In this document: positions 11,831 to 28,050 of the stretch, in pieces | How the letters are laid out: the number at the start of each line of letters is the position of its first letter | Position numbering within the stretch: the first letter of the stretch is position 1 | Origin: an uncultured Bacilli bacterium | GTDB taxonomy: Bacteria; Bacillota_I; Bacilli_A; ML615J-28; CAG-313 | Assembly (NCBI GenBank): GCA_949879765.1 | Contig: CATLBQ010000001.1 | Coordinates: 95,742 to 159,741, forward strand | Direction of reading: 5' to 3' | DNA length: 64,000 bases | Notes under the pieces: generated by a model | Databases searched by the model: none | What the model saw: the letters and a program-made list of their open reading frames with translations, nothing else | Told to the model about the DNA's origin: nothing | Translations under genes and position numbers: made by a program

Positions 11831-11859
11831 ATTTAATTTTTCGACAATTATGGTATAAT
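11831..11859 (+). promoter_or_regulatory. Promoter of the giant surface-protein/Opp locus (extended -10 TGgTATAAT) overlapped by a CodY-like box
   Basis: TGGTATAAT at 11851-11859. AATTTTTCGACAATT at 11835-11849 matches about 10 of 15 positions of the CodY consensus AATTTTCWGAAAATT. Confidence 0.45.
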
Positions 11860-11898
11860 TAACAAGATTACAAAAAAATCATGAGAGGAGATGCAAAA

Positions 11899-14800
11899 AT
11901 GAAAATTTTTAGAAAGACGTTAATCATATGCGGATTGTTTTGTGCACTATTTATTATAGGGTGTGCAAAACCTGCAGATTCTTTAGAAAATTCTAAAAAT
12001 CCAAATCATAATGGTACATCTGATTCATTCAAATTAGATGTTAGTCAAGTTACTGCTGACTTAAAAGCAGATTTTATTGATTCGCTCAATAAAGATTTGG
12101 TAAAGGAAATCGCAGACTTAAAAAAAGATGAAGAAGTAGGGGTGATCATTACATTATCAGATCAATCACTTGTTTCAGATTATCTTTTATCAAGTGCTGA
12201 AAATTTTGAAGCATATTCAAAAACAAAAGCATATAAAGTATTGCAAAGAACTTTATTCAGTAAACAAAAACAATTGATTGAATTACTAGAACAAAAACGA
12301 CTAGTTAAAGAAGTAAAATATCAATACGAAACAATATTAGATGGTATCTATGTTCGAACAAAGGCAAGTAATGTTCAAGCCATTACCCAATTGCCTGGGG
12401 TAGAAAGAGTGATGGTGTCTAATACGTATGATAAACCTGATGCGGTAACCAATCCAGTTCAAGTTTATGATACGGGTATTTTTGATAGTAGCGATGTAAA
12501 ATATACTGGAAAAGGTACAATTGTTGCGGTTTTAGATACAGGATGTGACTATACACATACGGCTTTTACAACACATGAAGTTATCGATCCATTGTATTCA
12601 AGAGATGACATTGAAGGGATGCTAGATGGGCTTTTTGCTAATCGCTATACCGCAGATTTAGAAACTCGTGATGTATATTATTCTAGCAAGATTCCTTATG
12701 GATACGATTATGCCGATAAGGATCCAGATATTATGCCATACGAAAGTGAACATGGTACACACGTTGCTGGTATTATTGGTGGATATGATGATACCATTTG
12801 TGGTGTTGCAATTGATACTCAATTGGCAATCATGAAAGTATTCTCAGACTACAAGCAAGGTGCTGAAGATGGAGATATCTTAGCGGCTTTAGAGGACTCT
12901 GTAAAATTAGGTGTAGATGCTATCAACATGAGTTTAGGTACTTCTTGTGGATTTACACGTGAAGAAGATGAGGCATATAAGAGTGAGATTTATGACAATA
13001 TTGAAAAAGCTGGAATTAGTTTAGTTGTTGCTGCATCAAATGACCATAGCAGTGCGTATGGTTCTGAGCAAGGAAATACCAATAAGGCTTCTAATCCAGA
13101 CTCTGCTACAGTAGGTTCACCATCTACTTATCATGCGGCATTATCTGTTGCTTCTATTAACGGAAATATGGATAAGTATATGCTTGCTAATGGTAATCAA
13201 ACTGTCTTTTTCTTAGAATCATTTAATCAATCTGCTAAAGAATATAATTTTTATGAAATGTTAGGTATTCCAAACAATCAATCTGTTGTTTATGATTACG
13301 TAACTGTTCCTGGATTTGGACTTAGTGCAAATTATACAGGTTTAGATATTCAGGGAAAAATTGCCCTTGTAAAGCGTGGAGATATTTCTTTTGAAGAAAA
13401 AGTTCAATATGCGTATGAAGCAGGTGCGATTGCATGTATCGTATATAACAATGTATTTGGTGATATTGTTATGACAGTAGGTAATAACTTACAAATCCCA
13501 ACTGTATCAATTTCTAAAGATGATGGAGTAAAATTGGCTTCAGTACCAAGCGGAAAAATTGAATTCAATATGAATAATATTGCTGGACCATTTATGTCTG
13601 ACTTCTCTAGTTGGGGACCTACACCAAATCTTGAATTAAAACCTGAAATCACGGCGCATGGTGGAAATATTTTATCGGCGATTCCTGGTGGAGGATATGA
13701 TAAATTAAGTGGAACCTCTATGGCTTGTCCAAATATGTGTGGTGTTGCGGTATTGGTTCGTCAATATGTAAAAGAAAAATTCCCTGGCCTTTCGACTACA
13801 GAGATTAGAGATATGGTTAACCAATTGGTGACTTCAACGGCAACAATTGCGTTAGACCGCTTAGGCAATCCATATTCACCTAGAAAACAAGGAGCTGGAC
13901 TTGCTAGTTTGTTCAATGCCGTAAATACCAAAGCATATTTGACGGTTGATGGCAAAAATGTGGCGAAAGCAGAACTTGGTGATGATCCAAAACGTACTGG
14001 TGTATATGAGTTTGAATTCAATTTAATCAATATGTCCGATCAAGCATTACGCTATGACTTATCTTCTGTTGTAATGACCGAAACCCTTTCATCTTCTGAC
14101 GAAGAATATGTAGCAGAACTAGGTTATATTTTAGATGGAAAGACAAGTTATGCTGTAAGCAATGGGACTTTAAATGGAACTGTTTGCGAAGTGGCTGCTG
14201 GTGCGACTTCTGTTGTAAAAGTAAAAATTACCCTCTCTGATGCTGATAAAAATTATTTGAACCGTTATTTCAAAAACGGTATGTATGTAGAAGGATTTAT
14301 AAAATTAAAATCATTATCAAATGATGTTGATTTAAATATTCCTTATCTTGCTTTTTATGGAGACTGGTCTGAAGCACCAATATTCGATTTAGACTATTAT
14401 ACTGTTGAAACAGAGTCTCATAATAATGCAATTGATGATGAAGATAAAATTAAAGCTGACTATTATGCAACTAAGCCACTTGGTAAATATTATTATGACT
14501 ATATTATCCCTCTAGGTAGTTATGTATACACGATGGATGAATCCTTATATAATCCAATTCCTGCAACGATGGAACATGCAGCAGTATCCTATTTTACAGA
14601 CTGCATTAGTGGAATATATGGTGTATTTACGGGTCTTTTAAGAGGTGCAAAAGAATTAAGTATTGAAATTAAAAATGAACTAACAGGAGAAGTAATTTGG
14701 GAAAATACCGAATACAATTGTTATAAATCGCACTACAGTGGTGCACCTAGACCATATTATTGCGATATTGATCTTGAAGCAGGAGATCTTGCGCTAGACA

Positions 14801-17800
14801 ATAATGCGAAATATGTGGTAACGATGAAAGCTAAACTCGACTGGAATAGTACAGAAAACAATCTAAATGATAGTTATAGTTTTTCTTTCTACGTTGATTA
14901 TGAAACACCTCGTGTGTTAGGTGCCAATTACCGAAAGGTATATGATAAGTCTGAAGAACGGTATCATTATTTTGTTGATTTAGAAGTTTATGATAACCAC
15001 TATGTCCAATCTATTCGCCCTGTTGTACTATATACCAATGAGGCGACTGGCAAATTGACGTATACGTCTTTAACTGATAATCCAATTCCGGTATATCAAA
15101 AGAATCGTGGTGAAAAAACCATTGTTGAAGTTGAAATTACAGATTACATGGATATCATCAAAGAAACCAATTTATCGGAAGGTCTTGCTTTCCATATCGA
15201 TGACTATGCGATGAATTCGAATATCTACTATATTTCTTTACCAGAATTAGATAGCAAAAATTTGGCTTTTACTGAAGATACATTAGAAGTGAGTGTAAAT
15301 GATACATTTGATTTAAGACAATTGATGAAGGTAAATGGTCAAGAAGGCATCAATACAGATTACTTAGGTAACTTAAGTTGGACTTCTACAAATCCTTCAG
15401 TAGTAAAAGTGTCTGGTGGTCAAATTGAGGCGCTTCAAGAAGGAAAAGCAACCATTCTTTGTGAAAGTTTAGTCACACATAAACGAATTTCAATTGTAAT
15501 CAATGTTGCAGCGAAGAATGACAATGATAATCCGTTATCTGGAGCCAATGTAGGTCTAGAAGATTTAAAATTTGTTTCTTACAATACATTATTTGCTTTT
15601 GAAAGTGATAACGACCACAGTGAGATTGGTTTAACTGGGTCTATTAATTTCTTTGATACGAAACCAAGCATTTCTTGCTATCCTAGTGAGAGTGTGAAAT
15701 TAAATTATGTGTTAAAACCATGGAATTTAAATGAAGATCGTTATACATTATCTTATAGTTCATCCAATGAAAAAGTAGTTCAAGTCGATAAAAACGGTGT
15801 GGTGACTGCTGTAGGTGAAGGTAAAGCTAGAATTAGCCTTCGTATCACCATTGATGGAAAAACCTCTACATTAGTAGCTCGTTGTGAAGTTACGGTAAAG
15901 AGTCCATTCATTGTAGAAAATCGTACACTTACAGAATATAAAGGTCTTGGTGGGGATGTTGTCATTCCTGATGACCTTGGAATTATGTATATTGGTTCTT
16001 TTGCATTCTGTCATTATAAGGTAGACAATAAAATAGAACCAGAAGATCCAGATGATTTTGATTCAAAAAAGATTCCTTTTGGAAATGATACGATTACATC
16101 AGTTGTCATTCCTGAAGGTGTTGAAGAAATTCAAAAATATGCATTCTATCAATGTACAGCATTAAGAAGAGTGAATCTTCCTACAAGTTGTACCAAAATA
16201 TATGAATATGCATTTTATAATGATACAGCATTACAACAAATCAATCTTGAAAATGTAGTTGTTATTGCAGCAAGAACATTTTATAATTGTGAAAGTTTAT
16301 TAGAAACAGATACAGCAAAAGCCAATACAATTGGTGAAGAAGCTTTTGCAAAATGTAAAAATATTCGTTCTGCTGATTTAAGAGAACTAAAAAGAAGTGG
16401 TAAAAATGCCTTTTTAGATTGTATCCGTTTATCTACAGTATTACTTGGAAAATGGACAAAATTGAGTGAAGGTATCTTTACGAATACAAGATTAACTGAG
16501 GTTACTGTATATAGCACATATGTACCTGATCAAGCATTTAAAGGCTGTGAAAGATTAACCAAAATTTCTTTTGAAAACGAATTGACTTATTTAGGAGATG
16601 CTGTTTTTGAAGGATGTCTTCGTCTTGAAAATATTGAATTCAAAAAAGGCGTTGAATATATGGGAACCGATTTGGTTAATGGTTGTAATGCGTTAAAGAC
16701 ATTAACTCTTCCATCATCAGAAGTAGAAATTGCTGATTATGCCTTCCAAAATAGTGGTATCGAAACGGTTGTTTTTGCTAAAGATACTTACATTGTATCT
16801 GCTGGTGGTAGTTTATTCAAATCTTGTGATCGTTTACAACAAATTGATGCTAGTGCATCTCAATATTATGCATATAAAGATGGCGCATTATATACTCAAG
16901 ATTTAAAGACCTTGATGTTGATTCATCCAAATACATTACTTTCTATTTACAATGTACCTGATTCTGTTGAATATATTGCACCATCTGCAGTATCTTGTAA
17001 TGAAAGTTTAACTGCTATTTATTTTAGTAACTCTTCTCAAATAAAAGAAATCGGAGCCAATGCTTTTGCGGAATGTCCAAATTTACAAATGGTAACTTTA
17101 CCAAACCATGATGTAACGATTGGGAATCACGCATTCTTCTATTGTCCAAAATTAGAAACTGTTAATGTCAATTTTGTAACTGCTATAGGAGATTATGCAT
17201 TCTCTTATACCAATGTAAGAAATATTACGATTGCTGAGGGAGCAACGCTTGGTGAAGGTGCCTTCTATCAAACAAGCAATTTATATGAACTTGTTCTTGG
17301 GGCTAATGTTCAAATTGGATTTGGTTCTTTCTCAAAGAGTGGGATTGTGAACGTTCAAATGCCAGAAGCTGGTGGTGTAGTCATTGGCGATCAAGCATTT
17401 GCTCTAAACCAATCATTGATGAGCATTGATTTAACCAAAGCTACTGGTAAAATTGGTGATGCTGCATTCTATAATTGTTCTAAATTAACTAGTATTGCTT
17501 TTGATCAAATTGAAGAAATTGGGGATCGAGCATTTGCAGATTGTACACGCCTTGAATCAGTAGAACTAGGTACAACATTGACAAAAATTGGTGAAAGTGC
17601 CTTTGCGCAATATGCAACAGGTTCAACATCTGGGGCTGCGTTTACATCGTTAGTCCTTCCAGATAGTTTAGTATACATTGGAGCAGATGCGTTCCATGGC
17701 TGTCGTTTGTTAGAAAGTATTGATTTAAATCAAGTTACAACAATTGGTGAACAAGCTTTTGCACATTGTGTGCAATTGGCTAGTGTTACACTAGGCGAGG

Positions 17801-27737: not shown

Positions 27738-27813
27738 AGCGCCTAGAAGATGTTGTACATACACAATTTATTTTCATATGATGGGAAAAATTCATCAAAA
27801 CAATTGAATGTTA

Positions 27814-27833
27814 GAAGGGGAAAAATCCCCTTC
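27814..27833 (+). terminator. Perfect 8-bp hairpin (GAAGGGGA aaaa TCCCCTTC) downstream of the locus; possible terminator, but no immediate T-run
   Basis: Seen directly in the sequence. The following stretch is AAATTTTAAAAATTTCTTTTTT. Confidence 0.35.
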
Positions 27834-28050
27834 AAATTTTAAAAATTTCTTTTTTGATGAAGCGCTAAAGAGCCCATTGGTAGTCTGTGTTTCAATGTTT
27901 GGATTGTTTCACTTGAGGAAATTGAAAGTGCTGATTATTCAGTTAACGCTCTAGGTTTCTTAAAAGAGATTCGTGTAGGTATTCAATATAAAGAAGAGAC
28001 TATTTACTATCAACTCGTAAGTGATTCGAATGTTGCTACTAGTCATAGCA

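Follow-up and report, generated by a model that had tools for sequence, protein, structure and literature searches.

A conserved S8 protease–Opp gene cluster in Anaeroplasma bactoclasticum and related gut bacteria as a probable protein-foraging module

Why does the gene of a giant surface protease lie in one string with the genes of a complete peptide importer? The question is raised by a locus, 93-98% identical to loci of MAGs labelled A. bactoclasticum, in a 64,000-nucleotide stretch of bacterial DNA (the window). The original prediction had read it as an apparent single operon joining a proteinase to its cognate importer, which suggested extracellular protein foraging.

Organisation and boundaries of the locus

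Our ORF calls on the window agree with the predicted arrangement of eight co-directional, tightly coupled genes. They abut or overlap on the + strand from 11899 to 27737 and encode a protease with S8, PA, Fn3 and BspA-type LRR domains, a Flg_new lipoprotein, OppA, OppB, OppC, OppD, OppF and an 81-aa membrane protein. The features of the region are:

11540-11565, +, strong intrinsic terminator closing the NIF3-family gene that precedes the locus (11-bp stem, 5 GC pairs, T8 tail)
11851-11859, +, predicted extended -10 element TGgTATAAT, ~40 nt 5' of the protease gene start
11881/11899-19338, +, protease gene (2485 aa from the first ATG, 11881; 2479 aa from ATG 11899)
12508-13899, +, S8 catalytic domain (aa 210-673 of the 2485-aa ORF; Pfam Peptidase_S8)
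13300-13536, +, PA domain inserted in the S8 domain (nucleotide positions; Pfam)
16078-18480, +, BspA-type LRR_5 adhesin-like region, approximate limits (Pfam, NCBIfam)
19240-19314, +, C-terminal transmembrane anchor of the protease (from the sequence; conserved among orthologues)
19335-20453, +, Flg_new lipoprotein gene (372 aa; start overlaps the protease stop, ATGA)
20457-22982, +, OppA-type gene (841 aa)
22994-24001, +, OppB-type permease gene (335 aa)
24010-25089, +, OppC-type permease gene (359 aa)
25093-26268, +, OppD-type ATPase gene (391 aa)
26258-27511, +, OppF-type ATPase gene (417 aa; ORF opens at GTG 26222)
27492-27737, +, 81-aa membrane protein gene (20-nt overlap with oppF)
27814-27833, +, first strong hairpin 3' of the last gene (GAAGGGGA-AAAA-TCCCCTTC, 8-bp stem)
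~28061-28082, no strand assigned, second, more canonical hairpin with T run (AGCAGGGG-TTA-CCCCTGCT, flanking A and T runs)

The gaps between the genes are -4, +3, +11, +8, +3, -11 and -20 nt, 11 nt being the largest in the string. Six of these values stand as predicted, but the oppD/oppF overlap is 11 nt and not 12 nt, with OppF starting at ATG 26258, which lies 9 nt after AAGGAGG and is also the start in the JGI annotation. The protease has the predicted 2485 aa when read from the first ATG, but ATG 11899 is likely the true start: it is preceded by a GAGGAG ribosome binding site, aligns with the orthologue starts and yields the lipobox FIIGC. Pfam searches gave domains matching the assignments made for the eight genes.

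The protease gene ends in an ATGA overlap with its neighbour, and gaps of at most 11 nt leave no space for a terminator between protease and opp genes; none was found there. Weak terminator-like matches on the + strand are located at 12053, 13135, 24992 and 26914; the total of 12 agrees with a shuffle expectation of 9.6 +/- 3.0. Promoter-like sites numbered 76, fewer than the 90 in shuffles, a result that speaks neither for nor against internal promoters. The predicted extended -10 element is present, is identical in the related locus L003 and has a -10-like counterpart at the same place in L005-L007. Another promoter-like site lies upstream at 11593-11621. The terminator of the NIF3-family gene shields the locus from transcription upstream. 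We infer that all eight genes are co-transcribed as a single operon, although the protease gene, at 7.5 kb, leaves the possibility of internal promoters.

The hairpin predicted after the last gene was found, and the 136 nt around it fold with z = -4.4; with its interrupted, imperfect T tract it is a possible terminator. The second hairpin, read by eye and absent from the terminator scan list, looks like a bidirectional terminator common to the convergent ferredoxin gene.

The encoded proteins

The protease begins with a lipoprotein signal (FIIGC) and a pro-region, followed by the S8 domain with inserted PA, fn3_5, Big_2 and about seven BspA-type LRR_5 units. A helical region, a Pro-rich spacer, the C-terminal transmembrane helix and a KKKGNKK tail complete the protein. 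Pfam matched Peptidase_S8 (E 4.5e-43), the inserted PA, fn3_5, Big_2 and LRR_5 (E 1.9e-130; 7 stretches, 429 bits), and partial NCBIfam matches were obtained with SGO_0316 and the HupY/LrrG adhesin model (5 stretches). The catalytic residues D213, H285 and S607 and the oxyanion residue N381 (numbered from 11899) are intact and invariant in 24 homologues, and the protein is predicted to be proteolytically active. The membrane anchor is a shared feature: all orthologue C-termini that are complete with a recognisable anchor show a transmembrane helix and a basic tail, and none an LPXTG motif.

PDB sequence matches of the protease were C5a peptidase (7edd, E 1.9e-66), ScpC (5xya) and SpyCEP (6vjb). 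The streptococcal enzymes ScpA/ScpB, ScpC/SpyCEP and CspA are the nearest solved structures, with E values of 1e-57 to 1e-66 for the part that comprises the catalytic, PA and Fn3 domains. They differ from the window protease in being LPXTG wall-anchored and specific for host immune mediators, with no opp operon alongside and no LRR_5. Since C5a peptidase and ScpC are specific virulence enzymes and not nutritional, they count against a foraging role and raise the alternative of a protease-adhesin that serves mainly in colonisation or attack. Its targets would be specific host molecules, like those of C5a peptidase, ScpC and IgA1 proteases, or surface proteins of prey cells, and Opp would only salvage the cleavage products or share the regulation of the protease for some other reason. 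The BspA/HupY-type adhesin region, which makes up half of the protease, is in line with such a role, as is the bacteriolysis reported for rumen mycoplasmas (PMC8941964).

The second gene product points the same way. The 372-aa lipoprotein (Flg_new in Pfam, invariant Cys23) models as InlB B-repeats followed by a short adhesin-type right-handed beta-helix; this helix is similar to IgA1 protease N-domains and to the adhesins PfbA and SRRP. A PrtM-like foldase was also considered for this protein and was rejected on the same model.

The importer consists of a family-5 substrate-binding lipoprotein (SBP_bac_5; lipobox MTASC), two BPD_transp_1 permeases, of which the OppC-type also contains OppC_N, and two ATPases, each with ABC_tran and oligo_HPY. 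Its substrate requires consideration, since other binding proteins of family 5 take nickel, opines, haem or oligosaccharides. The ABC system might thus import a non-peptide substrate or even help to assemble the protease, or its adjacency might be functionally meaningless. The single OppA sequence gave only weak PDB matches, nickel-type NikZ/YntA binders among them, and the components score below the NCBIfam equivalog cut-offs, except that OppF narrowly passes one dipeptide-ATPase subfamily model; both points also weigh against the foraging reading. OppA furthermore carries a large, unexplained insertion of ~230 aa, and OppD and OppF have N-terminal extensions of ~50 aa and ~85 aa. However, the OppA family profile places B. 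subtilis AppA (1xoc, E 1.7e-17), OppA (9p48), L. lactis OppA (3drf) and DppA first and NikZ last, the best NCBIfam models are the oligopeptide models Opp4A/B/C (Opp4A, below cut-off, for OppA), and OppC_N and oligo_HPY are present. We therefore take peptides as the probable substrate and consider this second alternative very unlikely.

The 81-aa protein has no matching family in Pfam or NCBIfam. An alignment of 36 orthologues shows an N-terminal poly-Lys stretch, the conserved motif Y-x-DDG-x-T-[ILV]-Y-x-M and a single C-terminal transmembrane helix with an invariant Pro, ending in FWLK. The protein matches only 69 representative clusters among 1.84 billion. Its gene is present in 59 of the 71 loci with sufficient downstream sequence and missing from the 12 most divergent, and a homologue with 29% identity is likewise located 3' of oppD-oppF. 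By sequence, it is a small conserved family accompanying the protease-Opp module.

S8 proteases are involved in Phr peptide processing, and the Opp of Bacillus, Enterococcus and streptococci takes up peptides that serve as signals. The locus could accordingly be a signalling module in which the protease matures an exported pro-peptide pheromone for re-import by Opp, as in Phr or RNPP-type quorum sensing in Firmicutes. Yet neither an RNPP-type regulator nor a short exported pro-peptide gene was found within the cluster or beside it, be it in the window or in the loci examined. The 24-aa ORF at 11674-11748 already lacks conservation in L003, a locus with 93% identity, and an adhesin-protease of ~2500 aa is out of scale for maturing a pheromone. 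This reading is extremely unlikely.

Conservation of the protease-opp linkage

Gene order in related genomes had been named beforehand as a check, and proteases never linked to opp as a refuting result; the comparison came out in favour of the prediction. We compared 80 OppA-centred loci from genomes of other species, with OppA identities from 98% down to 33%; taxonomic breadth was judged from sequence divergence only, because the taxonomic labels of MAGs are unreliable. An orthologous S8-LRR protease is co-directional with opp in 66 of the 80 loci by tblastn and in 64 by ORF assignment. The count is 49 of 54 where each flank extends over at least 9 kb, and four of the other five loci show a partial protease gene at the locus edge. 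From locus to locus, identity to the window declines in parallel for S8 and OppA (93/97, 72/74, 66/66, 56/56, 50/49, 42/41, 38/36). Because of these statistics chance adjacency is excluded, which also argues against a meaningless neighbourhood of importer and protease.

Two gene orders occur: the protease lies either at the 5' end (order A, as in the window) or directly after the 81-aa gene (order B), there with a gap of at most 51 nt in 27 of 28 loci. Order A is basal, and the protease was relocated at least three times, once with an inversion, adjacency being kept. The two positions and the inversion argue for selection on the linkage rather than mere inheritance of a gene order.

Reverse searches, whether started from the protease, from the Flg protein or from the 81-aa protein, led back to the same cluster, and homologues of the latter two with 26% and 29% identity lie within the same cluster type. 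S8 homologues with 39-57% identity are linked to opp (L085, L086, L087, L089), and those without LRR or with at most 37% identity are unlinked (L082, L084, L090, L091). Among the exceptions, the protease is convergent in L008, absent within 10 kb in L075 and separated by ~600 nt from the next gene in L014, L015 and L039. These few loci, like the 12 without the 81-aa gene, speak against our preferred explanation.

The conservation bears on the colonisation or attack alternative as well. Linkage to a complete importer is kept down to 33-35% OppA identity and through the rearrangements, which is hard to explain without a relationship between product and uptake. Moreover, the module occurs in gut MAGs of many hosts, among them deer, goat, sheep, rabbit, chicken, mouse and human, which is evidence against one host-specific target. 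We regard this alternative as unlikely; it overlaps with nutrition and does not exclude it.

Proposed function and relation to known systems

The locus is thus best explained, and in our judgement probably, as a conserved, co-transcribed protein-foraging module of A. bactoclasticum and related small-genome animal-gut Firmicutes/Mollicutes. The giant S8 enzyme, of the cell-envelope-proteinase/C5a-peptidase group, would be exported and held at the membrane by its C-terminal helix. Its BspA-type LRR half would attach to protein-rich material, for example other cells or proteins from the diet or the host, as the B-repeat/beta-helix lipoprotein would probably do too, and the catalytic domain would cut this material to oligopeptides right at the cell surface. 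The OppA lipoprotein would capture these peptides and OppBCDF import them, with the tail-anchored 81-aa protein, its conserved motif predicted to face the cytoplasm, as a putative dedicated transporter accessory. A nutritional purpose is consistent with the related RFN20/RF39 lineages, which have small genomes, miss several amino-acid pathways and have been modelled as oligopeptide importers (PMC7301438), and with the description of rumen mycoplasmas as proteolytic and bacteriolytic (PMC8941964). The predicted term 'self-contained' overstates the case, however, because the cluster contains no intracellular peptidase gene.

The closest parallel is the nutrition of lactic acid bacteria, where the combination of protease and Opp is established (PMC2827410). 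In that system, which also comprises PrtM and intracellular peptidases, a surface-anchored S8 proteinase (PrtP/lactocepin) with an inserted PA domain and Fn3-like domains supplies oligopeptides to OppABCDF in amino-acid auxotrophs. The proteases run parallel in overall layout, from signal and pro-region through the catalytic domain with its PA insert and the Fn domains to helical region, spacer and anchor. The genes do not form one operon there, unlike the string in the window; in L. lactis SK11, prtP/prtM and oppABCDF2 lie on different plasmids (PMC2827410), consistent with the predicted absence of linkage in Lactococcus. The window protease further differs in its transmembrane anchor in place of LPXTG and in the fused LRR adhesin region, and the window has no PrtM-type PPIase gene but the B-repeat/beta-helix lipoprotein, and adds the 81-aa protein.

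BspA and HupY(LrrG), whose models match the C-terminal half of the window protease, are stand-alone adhesins, whereas the window has such repeats as part of a protease. Opp systems of Mollicutes such as MMSYN1_0165-0168 likewise have an enlarged OppA lipoprotein and extended OppD/OppF; the window proteins match the MMSYN1 OppB/C/D/F models partially, but far below their cut-offs. Those operons are not known to be associated with an S8 protease, Flg lipoprotein or 81-aa protein. In S. aureus, the aureolysin gene is not known to be linked to opp3. Protease-plus-Opp nutrition is established there as well, aureolysin being functionally paired with one dedicated importer, Opp3, for growth on host protein (PMC6495380); that protease is a secreted metalloprotease, whereas the one in the window is a membrane-tethered S8 enzyme encoded in the same string as opp. 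The resemblance to Bacteroidetes PULs, predicted for those of Bacteroides, and to the gingipains and RagAB of P. gingivalis holds for the logic of one locus or surface system that unites a surface hydrolase with binding proteins and a dedicated importer. It is an analogy only, because the SusC/SusD (RagA/RagB) outer-membrane pair is missing from the window, where an ABC importer serves a monoderm or wall-less organism.

We found no description of such an operon in the searchable literature. The cluster would represent a new variant, in operon form, of the feeding system known from other bacteria that pairs a protease with Opp.

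Organization of the gene cluster

Eight open reading frames on the plus strand span positions 11881/11899 to 27737 of the window. They code for a giant S8 protease with LRR units, a lipoprotein with a Flg_new match (19335-20453), the Opp components OppA, OppB, OppC, OppD and OppF, and an 81-aa membrane protein (27492-27737). With about 34% GC the window is AT-rich, and the GC skew is positive over this region. The distances at the seven junctions are -4, +3, +11, +8, +3, -11 and -20 nt. Six of these values had been given correctly in the original prediction; the remaining one, -12, was off by one, as -11 is found with ATG 26258 as the start of oppF. 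This start codon lies 9 nt past an AAGGAGG sequence and is also the start called by JGI. Shine-Dalgarno sequences are present for each of the eight genes individually. For the protease, ATG 11899 is the probable start, because it is served by a GAGGAG ribosome binding site, aligns with the starts of the orthologues and yields a lipoprotein signal ending in FIIGC. The following signals flank the genes:

11540-11565, strong terminator ending the upstream gene
11851-11859, extended -10 element TGgTATAAT at a position conserved in relatives
about 28061-28082, hairpin with T run downstream of the module, more canonical than the hairpin at 27814-27833

The extended -10 element and the hairpin at 27814-27833 had both been predicted. 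The former is found in the sequence and is positionally conserved, and the latter is real, though its T tract is interrupted. Between the protease and the opp genes no convincing terminator was found. Internal terminator-like matches are weak and not commoner than in shuffled sequence (12 versus 9.6 ± 3.0), and promoter-like matches are rarer than in the shuffles, so that the promoter scan was uninformative. The overlaps or gaps of at most 11 nt, the individual Shine-Dalgarno sequences, the flanking terminators and the lack of a convincing internal one indirectly support a single transcription unit, and the eight genes are likely to be read as one transcript.

A possible leader peptide or attenuator was considered in the 315-nt upstream region. 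The segment that separates the upstream terminator from the protease promoter has a promoter-like site (TTGAAA-17-TACAAT with TG; 11593-11621), followed by a 24-aa open reading frame (MEKNQSKMNDNFYTDCMMIHTNSV; 11674-11748) with a strong ribosome binding site and by a small hairpin at about 11757-11775. This idea was dropped, because the small reading frame is not conserved even in L003, a related locus with 93% identity in the N-terminal region of the protease. The upstream sequence common to the window and L003 comprises only the last ~145 nt before the ATG. An Rfam search of the window gave no match, and a tRNA scan found none.

The module is flanked by housekeeping genes, upstream dnaG, rpoD, trmK and NIF3, and downstream a ferredoxin gene, plsY, parE, parC, a cmk-rpsA fusion, der and gpsA. 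The fusion (34084-36150) is a single 688-aa reading frame joining cytidylate kinase to S1 domains of the ribosomal protein S1 type. Elsewhere the window has sporulation-type genes, at 1676-2524 and 4226-5413, for a protein with a Germane domain and a homologue of the stage IV protein YqfD; the genus to which the genome is assigned, Anaeroplasma, is wall-less and does not sporulate. Sporulation genes are reported for most Anaeroplasmataceae genomes (PMC10868615), with which these two genes are consistent.

Encoded proteins

The domain assignments originally made for the eight genes were borne out by Pfam. In the protease, Peptidase_S8 (E 4.5e-43, aa 210-673) contains an inserted PA domain (aa 474-552) and is followed by fn3_5 (aa 709-823), Big_2 and about seven LRR_5 (BspA-type) units. 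Counted from ATG 11899, the residues D213, H285, N381 (oxyanion) and S607 are invariant across 24 homologues. The closest solved structures are surface proteases, namely C5a peptidase, ScpC/SpyCEP and CspA, and the alignment to C5a peptidase 7edd spans aa 204-871. Partial NCBIfam matches were obtained to a family of LPXTG-anchored streptococcal peptidases and to the LRR adhesin HupY/LrrG. The protein ends in a transmembrane helix and KKKGNKK; nearly all complete orthologues likewise have a transmembrane helix with a basic tail, and none of about 38 complete orthologue C-termini carries an LPXTG sortase signal. These features point to a membrane-anchored variant of the cell-envelope proteinase/C5a-peptidase group. 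At the N-terminus a lipobox is found in close relatives and an ordinary signal peptide in distant ones. From its sequence, the protease would cleave extracellular proteins.

The 372-aa lipoprotein has an invariant lipobox cysteine. Its structural model, a confident one (pLDDT 86.7), consists of InlB-type B-repeats and, after them, a short right-handed beta-helix. This suggests a surface protein of the binding or scaffold type and not a PrtM-like foldase; features of a PrtM-type PPIase were not found in this adjacent lipoprotein. Two more large surface proteins with Flg_new (InlB B-repeat) matches, 719 and 1364 aa long, are encoded at 39978-42137 and 42311-46405, which suggests that such proteins form a family in this genome. 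The 1364-aa product has no record in the gene-position index.

All five transporter components were recognized by Pfam: SBP_bac_5, two BPD_transp_1 permeases, one of them with OppC_N, and two ABC_tran ATPases with oligo_HPY. Nearly all of them stay below the equivalog score of a characterized Opp system (NCBIfam score versus cut-off: Opp4A 92.8 versus 650, Opp4B 256 versus 450, Opp4C 319.7 versus 350), and only the dipeptide-ATPase subfamily NF008453 is above its cut-off (410.9 versus 408). OppA is unusually long with 841 aa. Searched as a single sequence against the PDB it gave only weak NikZ-type matches, which would suggest that the transporter takes up nickel or another non-peptide substrate. 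A family profile of 32 OppA sequences, however, ranks peptide binders first (AppA 1xoc, OppA 9p48/3drf and DppA), and we regard a non-peptide substrate as improbable.

At their N-termini the ATPases OppD and OppF (25093-27511) are extended by about 50 and 85 aa, respectively, without a family match. Between loci (L002-L081) the length of OppF varies from ~340 to 650 aa, and in some of them OppB is enlarged by insertions of 100-200 aa. Each of the two ATPases terminates in a stretch with four cysteines (e.g. ...FCH), resembling the Fe-S-binding tails reported for some OppD/F proteins.

The 81-aa product has no match in Pfam or NCBIfam. Its N-terminus is poly-Lys, the motif D..G.T...M is invariant, and a transmembrane helix with an invariant proline lies at the C-terminus; by the positive-inside rule the N-terminus would be cytoplasmic. 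Matches are confined to 69 representative clusters among 1.84 billion.

Conservation of the protease-opp linkage

Whether the protease is linked to opp genes in related genomes had been named as a comparative check of the original prediction. An OppA-anchored scan of one genome per GTDB species gave 80 loci with flanks of up to 10 kb per side and an OppA identity to the window of 98% down to 33%. A same-strand homologue of the S8 N-terminal part was found by tblastn in 66 of these 80 loci (38 upstream, 28 downstream), and ORF-level assignment placed S8 in 64. Most of the remaining negatives lie on short contigs; where at least 9 kb is available on each side (54 loci), S8 is present in 49. In four more of these full-flank loci (L008, L009, L060 and L074) only the LRR part is seen, either where the locus ends or in opposite orientation, and a single one, L075, is without any such gene. 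The linkage is thus conserved.

Two gene orders were observed. Order A, as in the window, is S8, Flg, OppA, B, C, D, F and the 81-aa gene; in order B the protease gene stands last, starting at most 51 nt past the 81-aa gene in 27 of 28 loci. Whichever end the protease occupies, the Flg gene is directly 5' of oppA (68 of 74 loci). The 81-aa gene occurs in 59 of 71 loci and is lacking in the clade that diverges most. In a midpoint-rooted neighbour-joining tree of concatenated OppABCD (74 loci, 1900 columns, no support values), order A is found in the deepest and the nearest clades, and order B in one large clade and separately in L043 and L080; in L008 the protease gene is inverted. From these placements and the inversion, the protease gene has moved at least three times while staying adjacent. 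Across the loci, identity to the window declines in parallel for S8 and OppA, which is consistent with inheritance as a unit.

The linkage was also approached from the other genes. Anchored on S8, homologues with 39-57% identity and the LRR architecture are linked to opp (L085, L086, L087 and L089), whereas those without LRRs or with at most 37% identity are not (P0113/L082, P0119/L084, L090 and L091); P0113/L082 has genes for the biosynthesis of aromatic amino acids in its genome neighbourhood. L088 (S8 42% identical) was left out of the scoring, its contig ending 3 kb after the protease. A Flg homologue with 26% identity has a 2486-aa S8-LRR gene on one side and an SBP_bac_5 gene on the other, and a homologue of the 81-aa protein with 29% identity directly follows oppD-oppF. 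All four anchors thus return to the same module. The linkage marks a specific protease subfamily and not S8 enzymes generally. A metagenome scan seeded with the S8 alignment used generic back-translated patterns (HGTHVAG and similar); about 9 of its 80 loci were useful, most of them being unrelated subtilases.

Some loci deviate in further respects. In the most divergent clade (L074, L075 and L079) the ATPase genes are swapped, with the OppF-like before the OppD-like gene, and the upstream neighbours, where flanks exist, are giant proteins that have LRRs but no detectable S8 domain. Besides the 5' protease, L011, L012, L041 and L064 have a second giant LRR-containing gene after the 81-aa gene, at a spacing of roughly 100 nt in the first three and about 500 nt in L064; the module can therefore have adhesin-type genes on both flanks. 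The MAG Lapin-005__bin89 contains both orders, order A in L004 and order B in L077, with OppA identities to the window of 74% and 50%, so that the module has been duplicated or twice acquired if the binning is right.

The locus proteins are 93-98% identical to those of MAG loci named Anaeroplasma bactoclasticum (L002), a species placed by the NCBI taxonomy in the Mollicutes, Anaeroplasmatales. The 372-aa protein is exactly present on the 280-kb contig Ga0081180_1000004 of JGI metagenome 3300006201. L003 (JAMPDF010000001.1, 557 kb) is labelled 'Prevotella sp.', yet its module is 91-98% protein-identical to the A. bactoclasticum one, and the record is probably mislabelled or mis-binned. Over the 80 loci the MAG names look unreliable (e.g. 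Staphylococcaceae, Coprobacillus, Christensenella).

Possible function of the module

The combination of a surface protease with Opp is textbook knowledge from dairy lactic acid bacteria, where it serves the same function and the components are scattered. In L. lactis SK11 the proteinase and Opp genes are even on different plasmids (PMC2827410). Here, in contrast, they are fused into a putative operon conserved over many species. The protease is anchored in the membrane and not in the wall and is fused to a BspA-type adhesin region, the B-repeat/beta-helix lipoprotein takes the place that PrtM has with lactococcal PrtP, and there is an additional small membrane protein. The conserved linkage sets apart a subclass of cell-envelope proteinases that are membrane-anchored and fused to an adhesin. 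The likeness to the PULs of Bacteroidetes is by analogy only; Pfam found no domains of their hallmark, the SusC/SusD-like outer-membrane pair, in the eight proteins. No description of an S8-opp operon was found in the open-access literature. In our view the finding is well founded and of use, and its surprise is moderate.

Most economically, the module can be read as a surface unit for protein foraging. The substrate would be bound by the adhesin half of the protease and probably also by the Flg lipoprotein, and the S8 domain would produce oligopeptides at the membrane. These would be captured by OppA and imported by OppBCDF, with the 81-aa protein as a putative accessory of the transporter. 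In the related gut lineages RFN20 and RF39, whose genomes are small, several amino-acid pathways are missing, and these lineages have been modelled as oligopeptide importers, a protease not being mentioned (PMC7301438). Three less probable readings remain: a specific protease of the virulence or predation type, which overlaps with foraging, the processing of pheromones, and the non-peptide substrate considered above. A pair of adjacent genes for TldD/PmbA-family metallopeptidases lies at 46826-49572 of the window; their products could act on imported peptides.

Rumen mycoplasmas have been described as proteolytic and bacteriolytic (PMC8941964), and the module is a concrete candidate for this activity. 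A bolder and rather unlikely proposal is that the protease-adhesin, the B-repeat/beta-helix lipoprotein, the oversized OppA, the 81-aa protein and OppBCDF work as one physical surface machine. Such a machine would grip protein-rich particles or other bacteria, degrade them on the spot and pass the peptides directly to the importer. In A. bactoclasticum it could be the long-known, molecularly undefined 'bacterioclastic' factor, which is cell-lysing and proteolytic, and more generally it would be a hallmark adaptation of small-genome gut lineages to peptide scavenging.

For the foraging reading, the conserved linkage means that the extracellular half of a protease-Opp pathway is held in one gene string across dozens of uncultured animal-gut species. 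It places two families in a functional context, that of the B-repeat/beta-helix lipoprotein and that of the 81-aa membrane protein with its DDGxT motif, and the module offers a simple genomic marker of proteolytic potential in gut metagenomes. That the linkage has been kept suggests that the scavenging of proteins is a core feature of the small-genome lineages comprising Anaeroplasma and its relatives.
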